A stretch of 36,231 bases of DNA from Nitrospinota bacterium. GTDB taxonomy: Bacteria > Nitrospinota > Nitrospinia > Nitrospinales > VA-1. The position numbers were made by a program. The stretch spans positions 1 through 36,231 of the forward strand of contig JAYNIA010000024.1 in the NCBI GenBank assembly GCA_038108555.1, in the 5' to 3' direction. Positions within the stretch are counted from its first letter, which is position 1. Each line of letters starts with the position of its first letter. Below, piece after piece: positions 15,001-21,000 of the stretch.

Positions 15001-18000
15001 TGCATTGAACAACCGGGTAGATGTTTTTGAGCCAAAAGCAACTATTGTGAATGAAGGAGGGGAGGATATTACTGTTTTTGTCCTTCTGAAGGCGGAGGCC
15101 ATTGTTACCCGGAATGATTTGCCAAAAGTTGTTATTAACACGCTATCTATGGGGGCTTTGTTTGGCGAGGTCTCTTTTCTTACTAAGACTCCCCGAACCA
15201 CAAATATCATTGCAAAGACCGAAGCCAAAGTTTTGCGTTTGGATGCTGAAATGTTTTCCAAACTTAAAAGCGAAACACGAGACAAGTTGAAGGATAAATT
15301 TATCGAGGTTCTTGTGAGCCGGATAAGTGAAATGAATTCTGCACTGGTAAAATTAAAAGTGGAGTTAGAAGCCATCAGCCACGCGGCGGCAGATTACCAG
15401 CAGGAATTTGACCGAATATTAAAATCGGGAAAAACAATGAAAGAGGTGTTTGGGGGTATTAATACCACCATTACCGGTTTAATCCGATAGTTAAAATTGA
15501 ATTATTTTTTGAAGGGGATGACCAGTCGATCTACCGGCCGGTTATTTTGTATATGTTCAGAAATAATTTCTTCCATATCTTCTTTAGTACGTGGGGCGTA
15601 CCAGACATCATCAGGATAAACAACCATGGTGGGGCCTTGTGCACATGCATCCAGACATCCCGCTTTGTTGACGCGAACCTTTCCTTTTAATCCCAATTCG
15701 TGAACACGGCCTTTGATCTGGTCCAGTAATTCCAGGGACCCTCTGGAGGCACAACAGCCTCGTTTGTCACCTGATTTCCTTTCGTTAATACAGAGGAAAA
15801 TATGTTTCTGGAAGCGGCCCATTTTTCTAAATTGGAAGGCTAATCTTCTTTGGGAAGCTTGTGGGATGTGTTTTGACTTTCGTAATATTGTTTGAATTGC
15901 CCGAAATTAACGTAGCATCTTTCGCAGCTATCGGGAAATACCGTAACAATCACTCCACTTTCAATTTGGGCCGCGAGTTTGAGCGCTCCCAGCATGGCTG
16001 CAGCGGATGAATGCCCGACGAGAATTCCTTCCTCTTTTTCCAAGGTTTCCACCATATCGTAAGATTCTTCAGTGGCTACACTGATTTTACCCGTCAGTTC
16101 TTCTTCTTTATAGATTCCGGGAACTATGGATGTGGGCATATGCTTGAGTCCTTCCAGTCCATGAAGAGATTCTGCAGGTTCCACTGCATAGCATTGAATG
16201 TCAGGATTGAACTTTCGAAGGCCACGGCTGGTTCCCATAATAGTTCCACCGGTTCCGATTCCTGCCAGAAAGTGGGTGATACGGTTATTGGTTTGTTTCC
16301 AAATTTCCGGCGCGGTGGTTTCGAAATGCGCTTTCCAGTTGGAGTCATTGTTGTACTGGTCTGGCATAAAATATTTATCGGGATCTTTTTCAAAAATTTC
16401 TCGGGCCAGGAGGATGGCACCATCAGAACCCTCAAAAGGGCTGGAGGTTACGATTTCGGCACCGTAAAAATCAGCCATCAGGCCTTTTCGCTCTTTGCAG
16501 ACGTTTGCTGGCATGACCAGTTTCACTTTATACCCTTTAACTTTTCCTATCAGGGCATAGGCAATGCCTGTATTCCCGGAGGTGGAATCGAGAATGATTT
16601 TATCTTTGGTTAATTTTCCAGATTTTTCTCCGTCTTCTATCATTTTTAAAGCCGGACGGGATTTTACCGAACCTCCTGAATTTTTCCATTCGGCCTTGGC
16701 GTAGATATCGACATTTTTGAATTCTTTTCCAATGTTATGGATTCGAATGAGAGGGGTGTTCCCAATAGCGTCTAAAACGGAATTGTCCGTAATGACCGGG
16801 CACGTGGGTGCCTGCACGTCGAAGGGTATCGGAAAACTCAACGGTTTTGATGACATATTAGAATCTTATAAATTATTAACCCATGGTTAAGAATCTTTAG
16901 TGCCAATGGGTAAGTGTTAAATTATTGTCAGCGTGACAAACCACAAAACTCTTCATAATCGATTAATTCTGTTATCGTGGGTTCATCACTGCAGACTGGG
17001 CATTTTGGGTCTCTTTTTAATTTTAACTTTCTGAATTCTGTCTTCAAGGCATCGTATATAAGCAAGGAACCAACCAGAGTTTCACCCTGATTTAGAATCA
17101 GTTTTAACGTTTCGACAACTTGCAGATTGCCAATGATACCGGCTAGGACACCCAGCACGCCTCCTTCCTGACAGTTTGGAACAAGTCCTGGTGGAGGAGG
17201 TTCGGGATATAAGCAACGGTAGCAAGGTCCTTCCTTGGGTTTGAAAACAGTTACCTGACCTTCAAAGCGAAAGATACTTCCATGGATGTTGGTCTTTCCA
17301 GTCAGCACACAGGCATCGTTTATAAGATACCGGGTCGCAAAATTGTCTGTGCCATCTAAAATATAATCATAGCCTTCAAAAAGGCGCATGATATTTTCTG
17401 AGCTTAATTTTTCATTATAGACAGTAACTTTGACATCGGGGTTCAGGGCTTCTATGGTTTTCTTGGCAGACTCGGTTTTGAGCATTCCTATTCGTTCGGT
17501 GTTATGAATGATCTGCCTTTGAAGGTTGCTAAGGTCGACGGTATCAAAATCAATGATCCCCATATTTCCGATACCGGCAGCTGCAAGATAGTAGGCAGCT
17601 GGTGAACCTAACCCGCCAGCCCCTACAAGCAGTACTTTTGATTCCAGCAGCTTGCTTTGACCTTCCCCGCCCACTTCAGGGAGGATGATATGCCGACTGT
17701 ACCGCTCGACCTGCTCGTCTGAGAAATCGTACATCAGATGGCCCCACCTGCGATTGCGGGAATAATGGATATTTCATCGCCATCTTTTACAGCCGTTTTT
17801 TCGCCGTCAAGAAAGCGGATGTCATCTTCATTCAGGTATATATTGATGAAACGTCTTGGAGTTCCGTCCTCTTCACAGATGCGTTCTTTGATACCGGCAA
17901 ACTGGGACTCAAGATTATTGAGAATTTCTGTGATATTAGAGCCATCAGCCGATACTTCACTCTTATTGTCGGTCAACTTCATCAATGGTGTCGGTACTCT

Positions 18001-21000
18001 TACTTTTACTGCCATACTTTACTCCTTTTATACCGTTATACTGTTAGCAAAAGCTTCTTCAAAATTATCCAGTTTGGGTTCGATTACAACCGGGGCTTCA
18101 AAGCAATCTGCTAAAGCTTCCTGGGTTTTCAATCCATTTCCCGTGATGCAAATAACAGTTGTTTCGTCGGGTTTGATTCGACCCTGCTCTACCAGCTTTT
18201 TGGTAACTCCAACCGTTACCCCACCCGCAGTTTCCGTGAATATGCCTTCTGTTTCTGCTAATAGCTTCATGGACTCTTTCACCTCATCATCAGAAACATC
18301 TTCGCCATAACCCCCACTCGTGTTTGCCGTTTTAATACCGTAATATCCATCCGCCGGGTTGCCAATAGCGATGGATTTAGCGATGGTATTTGGTTTTACC
18401 GGTTTAATATTGTCACTTCCATTTTTGATGGCGGTGGTTACCGGGGAACAGCCTGTAGCCTGTGCTGCAAAAACTTTGGTTTGAACTTTGTCAACCAGCC
18501 CCAACATTTCAAACTCGTGAAATGCCTTCCAGATTTTTGTGATCAGTGAGCTTCCTGCTACGGGGACCACAACATTATCCGGGGTTTTCCAGCCCAGTTG
18601 CTCGGCTATTTCATATCCATAGGATTTTGATCCGTCACCATAATAAGGGCGGATGTTGATGTTAACAAAAGCCCATTTGCGGGTATCGCCAATTTCACTG
18701 CATAAACGGTTAACGTCATCATAGCTTCCTTTAACCGCTATCAATTGGGTACCATAAACAAGAGTGCCTAATATTTTACCCGCTTCAAGTCCGTCGGGAA
18801 TGAAAATGCAACTTTTCAATCCCGCTTCTGCGGCGTGGGCTGCAACAGAGTTTGCCAGGTTTCCTGTAGAGGCGCATGAAACGGTATCGAACCCAAACTC
18901 AATTGCTTTGGAGACTGCAACCGCAACGACCCTGTCCTTAAAAGAGAAGGTGGGGTGATTAACACTGTCATTTTTTATGTAGAGGTTATTTAACCCCAGG
19001 ACTTTTCCAAGGTTTTTAGCTTTAACCAATGGGGTAAACCCGGTGTGTAGTCCCACCTTTGGGTCTTCGTCGATGGGAAGCAGGTCTTTATACCGCCACA
19101 TGGTGGGAGGTCCCGCCTGGATGGACTCTTTGGTTACAACCTTTTTAATGGCTTCATAGTCGTAGTTACACTCCAGAGGACCAAAACAAAATTCACAGAC
19201 GTGAATCGGCTCTTTGGGAAATTCTTTTCTACATTCTTTACAAATTAAACCTTTTACATGACCCATCCAACAATTCCTCAAATTTTTAAACAAGCAGATA
19301 GATTGCCTGTTTGATTAATTTTATTTAGCTAAAAATATTGGTTAAAGCTAAAGTAACGTTCTCCGGTATCTGGCAATACAACGACAACATTTTTACCGGG
19401 GCCTAATTCTTTTGCTACCTCATTTGCCGCACAACATGCAGCCCCTGCGGAGACCCCAACTAATAGTCCTTCTTCCTTTCCAAGTCTCTGTGCGTATAAA
19501 AAAGCATCCTCATCAGTAACAGGGCGAATATGATCCAGAAGATCCAGATTTAAAACATTGGGCTTGAACCCTGCTCCTATACCCTGAATCTTGTGAGGTC
19601 CGGGCGGGTTTCCAGATAGGACTGCCGAAGTCGCGGGTTCCACACCAACTATTTTTACATTGGCATTGTGCTCCTTTAAAACTTCGCCAACCCCTGTTAC
19701 CGTTCCTCCGGTTCCAATTCCTGCTACAAATCCATCGATTGATTCCCCGTCCATGGCTTCAATAATTTCGGGAGCCGTTGTTTTTCGGTGGACTTCCGGA
19801 TTGGCCGGGTTATTAAACTGTTGGGGCATGAAATAATCCGGATTTTCCGCCAACAGTTCTTCAGCCCTTTCTATGGTGCCTTCCATTCCAAATTCGGCCC
19901 GGCTAAGTTCTGTTTTTGCACCAAAACTTTCCAGAATCATCCGCCTTTCGGTGCTCATATTTTCCGACATGACGAGAATGACATTATACCCTTTAATGGC
20001 ACCTACCAGTGCGAGGCCAATTCCTGTATTTCCGCTTGTCGGTTCAATGATGGTAGACCCTGGTTTTAAAAGACCCTTTTTCTCAGCATCTTCCACCATG
20101 GCCAGAGCAATTCGGTCCTTAACACTGCCCCCTGGGTTGAAAAATTCCAGTTTGGCATAAATGTTGGCACCATTTTCGGGAATAACGTTATTCAGTTTAA
20201 CTAATGGTGTGCCACCGATCAACTCTAAACTATTAACAAATTTGGATTTAAGCATTTTGACCCAAATGAAAGCGAATTATTTTCTGGTTTGTTATTGAAA
20301 GTCCACCTTGGCAAGCCATTAACAGGCGAACGAAGGAGAAATTATATCCTAAAAGAAACAATACTATGCTTTAGATCGGCTATGAATTCAAGCCATTTAT
20401 GGGATTTTAGGGGGAGAAAAAATCAACTCCTTGACTGTCTGTTTTTGCCTAGCCCACGTAGGCGCTTTTTGAATTGCTGGGTCACGAATTGGGAGTCTTC
20501 TTCGTTGGATATGACATGGGGGGTGATGAATATCATCAACTCGGTTTTTTGAAGAGTGGTGGATTCGGTACCAAACAATCTGCCAACCACAGGCAAATCT
20601 TTAAGAAATGGGACTCCAGATACCGTATCGGTCGTATTGGTTCGCATAAGGCCGCCCATCACCAGAACCTGATTATCTTTTAAAACTACCTCAGTATTCA
20701 CCTGGCGGGTATTGAAAGAGGGGGTATTTCCCACATCCGCACCCCGGCTGGAAATTTCCTGGTTAATTTTTAAATTAACAAAGTTTTCGGAATTGATTTT
20801 TGGAGTGATATCCAATTTGATTCCGACACTTCGAAATTCAACCGTGGTCGATGTTACAGGTTCCACAGTATTGGTGGTTAGGGTTGTCGAGTTGATCGGG
20901 ATTTCATCGGTAATGGAAATGTTTGCCGCTTTATTATCCGAGGTTACGAGTATGGGATTTGCAAGAACATTGGCTTTTGAATCCGATGCAAAAAGCTGCA

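Follow-up and report, generated by a model that had tools for sequence, protein, structure and literature searches.

The window, the whole 36,231-nucleotide stretch of Nitrospinota DNA that was analyzed, carries a run of reverse-strand genes related to sulfur amino acid synthesis (Table 1). The genome-wide survey's note had described a five-gene operon at 15840..20255, and all five open reading frames lie on that strand within that span, including the carrier with the C-terminus that the note had given. The operon probably extends into the [2Fe-2S] ferredoxin gene behind it. The thrC2 reading frame (18028-19293) passes the generic thrC model, as had been cautioned earlier, scoring 307.5 bits against TIGR00260 in a profile search (cut-off 167); its start is likely the ATG at 19266 because relatives begin at the same Met. 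Upstream of cysK, the sequence TTGACT..TA(T/C)AAT was found in five distant loci, and the window has the -10 alone in common with them. No Rfam family, SAM riboswitch included, matched anywhere in the window, and a promoter and terminator scan stayed at chance level (11 versus 9.2 expected).

Table 1. Features of the operon and its leader in the window.
Feature	Position	Strand	Details
Leader, gspD/cysK intergenic	20256..20422	-	167 bp; TATAAT at 20346-20341
cysK, canonical O-acetylserine sulfhydrylase A, operon gene 1	19329..20255	-	308 aa; TIGR01139 432 bits, cut-off 351
thrC2, predicted MetM, carrier-dependent homocysteine synthase	18028..19266	-	412 aa; N-terminal CxxC..CxxC
Sulfur-carrier protein, predicted MetO	17734..18015	-	93 aa; C-terminus AGGAI (GG masked by AI)
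MoeB/UbaA-type E1 adenylyltransferase, ThiF family	16928..17734	-	268 aa; PF00899 alone, without rhodanese domain
CysM-class PLP enzyme (cysM-like)	15840..16856	-	338 aa; best model TIGR01138 330 bits, cut-off 394
Thioredoxin-like [2Fe-2S] ferredoxin, probably final operon gene	15502..15822	-	PF01257; 17 bp behind cysM-like

Conservation was surveyed in 102 genomes of the order Nitrospinales, 51 of them near-complete, which as related genomes are non-independent samples. ThrC2 was detected in 87/102, in line with the earlier claim that it is conserved across the order. Within the near-complete set, ThrC2, the hom-linked ThrC (ThrC1) and a JAB protease are present in all 51 genomes, MetX, MetA and DUF39 in none, and strong PF01053 genes in six. 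Gene order was counted in 52 loci at identities of at least 80%, only where the DNA reaches. The carrier gene lies directly 3' of thrC2 in 51/51 loci, the cysM-like gene is present in 47/48, and cysK is upstream of thrC2 in 45/46; the sole cysK miss and the sole cysM miss are the same locus (L028), which has N gaps. The gene order previously given as kept in 11 of 11 loci thus holds for these three genes but not throughout for the E1 gene, which was found in 47/51 loci and is absent from four. The ferredoxin gene occurs in 36/41 loci at an identity of at least 60% and in four further loci at 56-58%.

Nitrospina gracilis, an obligate autotroph, assimilates sulfate to sulfide (PMC3578206), and a de novo methionine route is therefore needed. 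The reported lack of homoserine acyltransferases was reproduced while the control searches gave signal: MetX was found in 0/102 genomes and MetA in 1/102, as a 45-aa piece. The DUF39 route was ruled out as well (0/102). Strong matches to PF01053, the MetB/MetY type, occur in 17/102 genomes, and four of these genes that were tested comprise one MetY, one MetC and two below every cut-off. Since this assembly carries such a gene at C4:120635, it had been suggested that a MetB-like enzyme acting on O-phosphohomoserine, like plant cystathionine gamma-synthase, is the true entry to methionine. That proposal is largely ruled out for the order and hardly credible to us, considering that the genes are few among near-complete genomes and of differing kinds, so that an enzyme of this type could not supply all of Nitrospinales. 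In this assembly, the copy lies behind a radical SAM gene of the AmmeMemoRadiSam type.

With regard to precursor supply, ThrB was found in 0/102 genomes of the order and ThrB_alt above its cut-off in 0/102, and ThrH is above cut-off in 81/102, which settled the suspicion that the order is missing a homoserine kinase. Phosphohomoserine probably comes from ThrH. ThrH is absent from this assembly, which is 92% complete. A degenerate HomK copy beside aspartate kinase looks dead. A full-length MetH-like gene is present in this assembly and scores 744 bits, below the 1011 cut-off.

To place ThrC2 relative to MetM, we compared it with 20 ThrC paralogues of Streptomycetaceae, an orthogroup with 79-99% identity among its members, and not with S. 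albulus MetM (UniProt A0A059WBP2) itself. The metM-metO layout has been described as a SAM riboswitch followed by a ThrC-like gene and then a carrier gene (PMC13759103 and PMC12172450), and the Streptomycetaceae loci had a SAM-I riboswitch upstream in 20/20 tested and a carrier downstream in all. ThrC2 is 52-55% identical to these paralogues, a set biased toward similar proteins because the motif pattern used to collect it resembles the query's; the S. sioyaensis protein, our proxy for S. albulus MetM, matches it with 54% identity over 411 aa. The 52-55% range is on a par with the 51.6% identity between the Microcystis homologue and S. albulus MetM (PMC12172450). ThrC2 and the Streptomycetaceae paralogues have the motifs SFKDRVV, NxNxRP(Y/F)Yx(D/E)GSK, GNPADG and ETAGG(V/T) in common, from which those of hom-linked ThrC differ (GSFKDxGM and NSxNxxRxxGQKT). 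In the same genome, ThrC1 lies at C11:33560-34891 directly behind hom, where the housekeeping enzyme had been placed, and combines the hom linkage with the NSxNxxR/GQKT active-site motif; ThrC2, which has no hom link, carries NINIRPYYGDGSK. ThrC2 is 28% identical to ThrC1, and ThrC1 is 25-27% identical to the Streptomycetaceae ThrC2 set. In a tree built by a quick method from 40 of 59 rows and midpoint-rooted, a 32-row clade joined ThrC2 and the Streptomycetaceae paralogues (SH-aLRT 99), with hom-linked ThrC outside.

ThrC2 might instead be a second or bifunctional threonine synthase, the carrier and E1 serving only the CysM-like enzyme in a mycobacterial-type cysteine route and methionine being made by an unrecognised route. 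The match to the generic thrC model and the nearly constant CysM-class gene would fit this explanation, as would the threonine produced in vitro by the Microcystis homologue (PMC12172450) and the top PDB matches of the carrier, 4n6e_B and, second-best, CysO 3dwg_C. We nevertheless consider it unlikely: every near-complete genome has a separate hom-linked ThrC, whose NSxNxxR motif ThrC2 lacks, and the other homocysteine routes, namely MetX, MetA, DUF39 and an order-wide MetB/MetY, were not found. Furthermore, outside Nitrospinota the ThrC2-carrier pair is under SAM control and has no cysM in the flanks examined.

The carrier is 47% (43/91) identical to the S. sioyaensis carrier encoded behind that species' ThrC2, and its tail varies from one to three residues across the order's loci. 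A role as molybdopterin or thiamine carrier was ruled out, with moaD and thiS separate in their own loci (ThiS on C41 by thiG, MoaD on C23 between moaC and moaE). The operon E1 had been labelled MoeZ and turned out to be a short protein with the ThiF domain only; a paralogue at C7:6317-7471 (384 aa, 63% identical) has a rhodanese-like tail, as judged from its sequence, and the E1 sulfur ligase that the MetM/MetO pathway requires is present in the genome. The JAB peptidase located earlier at C45:17749 was recovered as a gene spanning C45:17749-18210, and JAB proteases occur in 96/102 genomes of the order. Of the argument that a masked carrier GG needs a JAB protease, the presence of the gene stands, but the protease is not specific evidence for the carrier route, since the GG of ThiS and of MoaD is likewise masked. 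The predicted complex of ThrC2 with the trimmed carrier, modeled from single sequences without alignments, scored 0.54 versus 0.42 for the control and was given no weight in either direction.

Taken all together, the genes present and their order, the clade and motifs of ThrC2, and the absence of alternatives make it very likely that this operon is the Nitrospinales entry to methionine, by the MetM/MetO route to homocysteine. The earlier prediction that homocysteine arises from O-phosphohomoserine and a thiocarboxylated carrier is supported by the Streptomyces orthogroup match, the lack of DUF39 and the scarcity of MetB/MetY-type genes. ThrH would probably phosphorylate homoserine, taking the phosphate from phosphoserine, and the unlinked JAB protease, going by its family, would cut the AI tail of the carrier to free the GG. 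The operon E1 would then adenylate the carrier toward the thiocarboxylate, the candidate sulfur donors being the sulfide that assimilatory sulfite reduction yields or a persulfide on the paralogue with the rhodanese-like tail. By its orthology to MetM, ThrC2 would remove the phosphate from O-phosphohomoserine and bring the carrier sulfur to C4, and the resulting homocysteine would be methylated by MetH, the gene for which is present. Threonine would be supplied by the hom-linked ThrC1 and cysteine by CysE and CysK.

Several observations were counted against the MetM/MetO reading: the window without a SAM riboswitch, the assembly without ThrH, an E1 that is rhodanese-less and missing from some loci, and the threonine synthase and deaminase activity of the Microcystis group member in vitro. 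It is also conceivable that ThrC2 makes another sulfur product with the carrier or uses free sulfide, methionine being imported or made by an unknown route; no riboswitch links the window's operon to methionine, and the roles of its two cysteine synthase homologues and ferredoxin are not fixed. Given that ThrC2 reaches only 62 bits against the model for cysteate synthase, which has a cut-off of 325, and that its Streptomycetaceae orthologues are under SAM control, we regard this as very unlikely.

On the cysteine side, CysE is present in 93/102 genomes and the CysK of the window is canonical; therefore, cells do not need the carrier to make cysteine, the earlier suggestion of cysteine via CysM would not be required, and an acyl-free cysteine route forced by CysE loss was ruled out. 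The CysM-like protein scores below all cysM/cysK cut-offs; compared with the single proteins, it scores 208 bits with E. coli CysM and 173 with Mtb CysM. Its Lys238, kept in 46/46 motif matches, aligns with E. coli CysM Arg210, which we take to be the anion-selecting position and equivalent to Mtb CysM Arg220. Tentatively, one carrier may feed both cysteine and methionine, with O-phosphoserine as a hub (phosphate donor for ThrH and substrate of the Lys-type CysM) and the rhodanese-less E1 loading the carrier directly from sulfide, a possibility that we hold to be rather doubtful. The HomK copy that looks dead would, under this shared-carrier proposal, be retained beside aspartate kinase. If true, a shared cysteine and methionine module would be a fixed trait of a major order of marine autotrophs and would involve a cysteine synthase subfamily for which we found no characterisation.

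Mycobacterial CysM, CysO, Mec and MoeZ form a carrier-thiocarboxylate route to cysteine (PDB 3dwg). The Nitrospinales locus resembles it in the CysO-like carrier, CysM-class enzyme, E1 and JAB protease, and differs in that CysE and CysK are also present and that the CysM-like enzyme, with Lys at the Arg210 position, matches Mtb CysM no better than it matches E. coli CysM. In Wolinella succinogenes, the HcyS/HcyD/HcyF/MetY/Sir system uses carrier-borne sulfur with O-acetylhomoserine and MetY, and its short, rhodanese-less E1 loads sulfide from sulfite reductase. Carrier sulfur for homocysteine, as predicted here, and the type of E1 are similar, whereas Nitrospinales lack MetX and have one MetY among the four PF01053 genes tested.

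The closest counterpart is found in Streptomyces albulus, namely the thiocarboxylate route that runs through MetM, MetO, Mec and MoeZ (Hasebe et al. 2024, AEM 90:e01247-24, as summarised in PMC13759103 and PMC12172450). As far as those summaries go, both have a GG-tailed carrier immediately behind a ThrC-like enzyme from one and the same clade, a JAB protease, an E1 and a separate hom-linked ThrC in the genome, and no acyl-homoserine route. In contrast with S. albulus, the Nitrospinales operon lacks a SAM riboswitch, its linked E1 lacks rhodanese, the pair is embedded between cysK and the E1, cysM-like and ferredoxin genes, and phosphohomoserine is probably made via ThrH, not ThrB. Many Streptomyces carriers end in GG or GG-C, unlike the GG-AI seen here. 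Microcystis aeruginosa ThrC acted in vitro as a threonine synthase and deaminase, with no clear homocysteine and an unidentified methionine-like peak (PMC12172450); it resembles ThrC2 in its identity to MetM (~52%), adjacent metO-like gene and lack of a riboswitch, but Nitrospinales retain a separate ThrC. GapMind 2026 includes the pathway and already has an entry for a predicted Mec from an autotrophic member of Nitrospirota (PMC13759103). Our literature search, whose scope left out subscription papers and bioRxiv supplements, found no publication on this route in Nitrospina, though Hasebe 2024 may list Nitrospinae homologues; two Nitrospina genome papers, PMC3578206 among them, name methionine once each in other contexts. 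Most likely, the operon adds a well-supported case to a pathway that is already published, and its chemistry is not new.

If the MetM/MetO reading is true, the methionine gap would be closed in Nitrospinales, which are major marine nitrite oxidisers, and in all near-complete genomes of the order a gene annotated as threonine synthase would encode the homocysteine synthase. Annotation and metabolic models would be corrected accordingly, and one argument for methionine auxotrophy would fall. With a separate ThrC and no competing route, Nitrospinales would also offer a clean non-actinobacterial test of MetM.

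Genome G000, whose contig C24 is the window, comprises 2.9 Mb at 91.85% completeness. On the minus strand, a type II secretion cluster, with gspD as its last gene, is followed in turn by cysK, thrC2 and genes for a sulfur carrier, an E1 adenylyltransferase, a CysM-like protein and a [2Fe-2S] ferredoxin. The gspD-cysK neighbourhood is retained in most close relatives, and those matching at 80-92% identity carry, for the most part, the label Nitrospina, Nitrospinaceae, Nitrospinales or Nitrospinota. Gene order was sampled from 52 loci at an identity of at least 80% (L001-L051 and L080) out of 80 returned, two of the 52 being labelled as other phyla. 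Counting only loci whose DNA reaches the gene position, the carrier gene accompanied thrC2 in 51 of 51 loci, the E1 gene in 47 of 51, the cysM-like gene in 47 of 48 and cysK in 45 of 46, and the cysK and cysM-like misses both stem from L028, a sequence with six N gaps. The conserved order proposed in the genome-wide survey's note therefore holds for the carrier, cysM-like and cysK genes but not for E1, which is absent at four loci. These (L040, L045, L049 and L080) represent one lineage, with an ORF-free gap of 270-390 bp between the carrier and cysM-like genes. By labels from sequence reading, one locus (L054) holds an extended operon of thrC2, carrier, E1, DsrE-like, cysM-like, TusA-like, NIL-like and Rrf2-like genes, and a small NIL-like ORF adjoins the carrier gene in Tectomicrobia and Dehalococcoidia loci. 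A 403-aa ORF elsewhere in the window had no match in a Pfam search at E 1e-5.

Features of the window, of other G000 contigs and of loci from other genomes
Feature	Location	Strand	Remarks
Carrier	window	-	93 aa, C-terminus AGGAI
Operon E1	window	-	ThiF family, 268 aa
Type II secretion genes	window 20423-31329		GspE-, GspF-like to GspD; directly upstream of operon
403-aa ORF	window 3854-5065
HomK/ApgM homologue	G000:C4:74803-76008		L247; further loci L333-L361
MetB/MetC-family gene	G000:C4:120626-123147		L081
ThiS	C41:12867-13070
MoaD	C23:24983-25234
Extended operon	L054:590-6219
NIL-like ORF	L053:2984-3316
NIL-like ORF	L076:6255-6497

A motif scan for ThrC2-like genes returned 120 loci of actinobacterial type, 80 of them with flanks. 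This flanked set included 27 Streptomyces/Kitasatospora loci, of which we examined 20. All 20 showed a SAM-I riboswitch upstream of the ThrC2-type gene and a carrier gene downstream (20/20 each), matching the arrangement reported for metM-metO in GapMind 2026 (PMC13759103) and PMC12172450. The proteins of this set, which was picked by query-like motif and stands in for S. albulus MetM (A0A059WBP2), share 79-99% mutual identity, 52-55% with the window ThrC2 and 25-27% with ThrC1, the separate hom-linked ThrC of G000. Compared with their S. sioyaensis counterparts, the window enzyme is 54% identical and the window carrier 47%. The motifs SFKDRVV, NxNxRP(Y/F)Yx(D/E)GSK, GNPADG and ETAGG are common to the window ThrC2 and the Streptomyces set, while hom-linked ThrC carries GSFKDxGM and NSxNxxRxxGQKT instead. 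In a quick IQ-TREE analysis, which kept 40 of 59 rows after removal of the CysK row and 18 close relatives, the window ThrC2 and the Streptomyces proteins formed one 32-row clade with an SH-aLRT of 99, and ThrC1 and the Streptomyces hom-thrC-thrB enzyme fell outside it.

The operon carrier is a dedicated one, thiS and moaD sitting in separate loci elsewhere. ThiS and MoaD of G000 end in GGGI and GGS, so that with the operon carrier 3 of 3 are masked. The unlinked JAB protease (Mec type), which the survey's note had invoked for the masked GG, is present in G000, in 96/102 genomes of the order and in all 51 near-complete ones, but since residues follow the GG in all three carriers, the cell would require it with or without this operon, and its presence is unspecific as evidence. 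The operon E1 has a ThiF domain only, and the MoeZ part of its earlier ThiF/MoeZ label does not fit; an E1 paralogue on contig C7 (384 aa) has a rhodanese-like tail. Clustered at 90%, the S. sioyaensis carrier (P0020) falls together with an S. platensis protein named PtmS3, and this may be a carrier of primary metabolism that natural-product sulfur insertion also uses.

Other homocysteine routes were searched in 102 genomes of the order, 51 of them near-complete, with control genomes giving matches. MetX and DUF39/HcyBio were found in 0 of 102 each and the sole MetA match was a 45-aa piece, which bears out the reported absence of homoserine acyltransferases. Strong Cys/Met-metabolism PLP genes occur in 17/102 genomes (6/51 near-complete); four of the 17 were typed, as one MetY, one MetC and two under all cut-offs. 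G000 itself has a divergent MetB/MetC-family gene, patchy in the order, behind an AmmeMemoRadiSam radical SAM gene (TIGR04337 above cut-off) and near an NRPS-like ORF. ThrC2 and hom-linked ThrC1 are each present in 87/102 genomes and 51/51 near-complete ones; as kin are not independent, the genome counts given here should be read as a description of the order, without the weight of a statistical test. G000 also encodes a full-length MetH-like protein and one reductase of the NIR/SIR family, and N. gracilis is described as an obligate autotroph that assimilates sulfate to sulfide (PMC3578206).

As for the supply of O-phosphohomoserine, ThrB was found in 0 of 102 order genomes and ThrB_alt reached its cut-off in none. 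ThrH exceeded its own cut-off in 81/102 and was matched in 47/51 near-complete genomes, with all 14 control genomes lacking a match; G000, at its stated completeness, gave none. A HomK/ApgM homologue occurs in 96/102 genomes, always below the TIGR02535 cut-off, and adjoins aspartate kinase in 29/29 loci. All 30 sequences examined (G000 and the best 29 loci by score) have other residues in place of the metal ligands and of the HomK Glu, and most have also lost the catalytic Ser; the homologue is likely a conserved pseudoenzyme.

CysE is present in 93/102 order genomes, and cysteine can therefore be made by CysK along the standard route. In the CysM-like protein the CysK loop is missing, and a conserved Lys occupies the position of E. 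coli CysM Arg210; we take phosphoserine or thiosulfate chemistry to be plausible for it.

The MetM/MetO route was reportedly described in S. albulus by Hasebe in 2024. GapMind 2026 covers MetM, MetO, Mec and MoeZ, gives a predicted Mec for Dissulfurispira and warns that MetM is frequently misannotated as threonine synthase; a count of 'Nitrospin' in the main text gave 0 (PMC13759103). Literature outside subscription journals yielded nothing on this route in Nitrospina. Against a MetM/MetO reading, we counted the activity of a Microcystis group member, reported in PMC12172450 as threonine synthase and deaminase, with a MetM-like assay giving only an unidentified peak. We also counted the missing riboswitch: the Streptomyces/Kitasatospora loci examined have a SAM-I riboswitch, whereas an Rfam search of the window gave 0 matches. 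On the other side, ThrC2 lies in the MetM-type clade with the Streptomyces proteins and the alternatives are absent from the order searches, in agreement with the MetM-MetO reading first offered by the survey. Taken together, the window operon is, as predicted from its genes, very probably a real and well-supported further example of the known MetM/MetO pathway.
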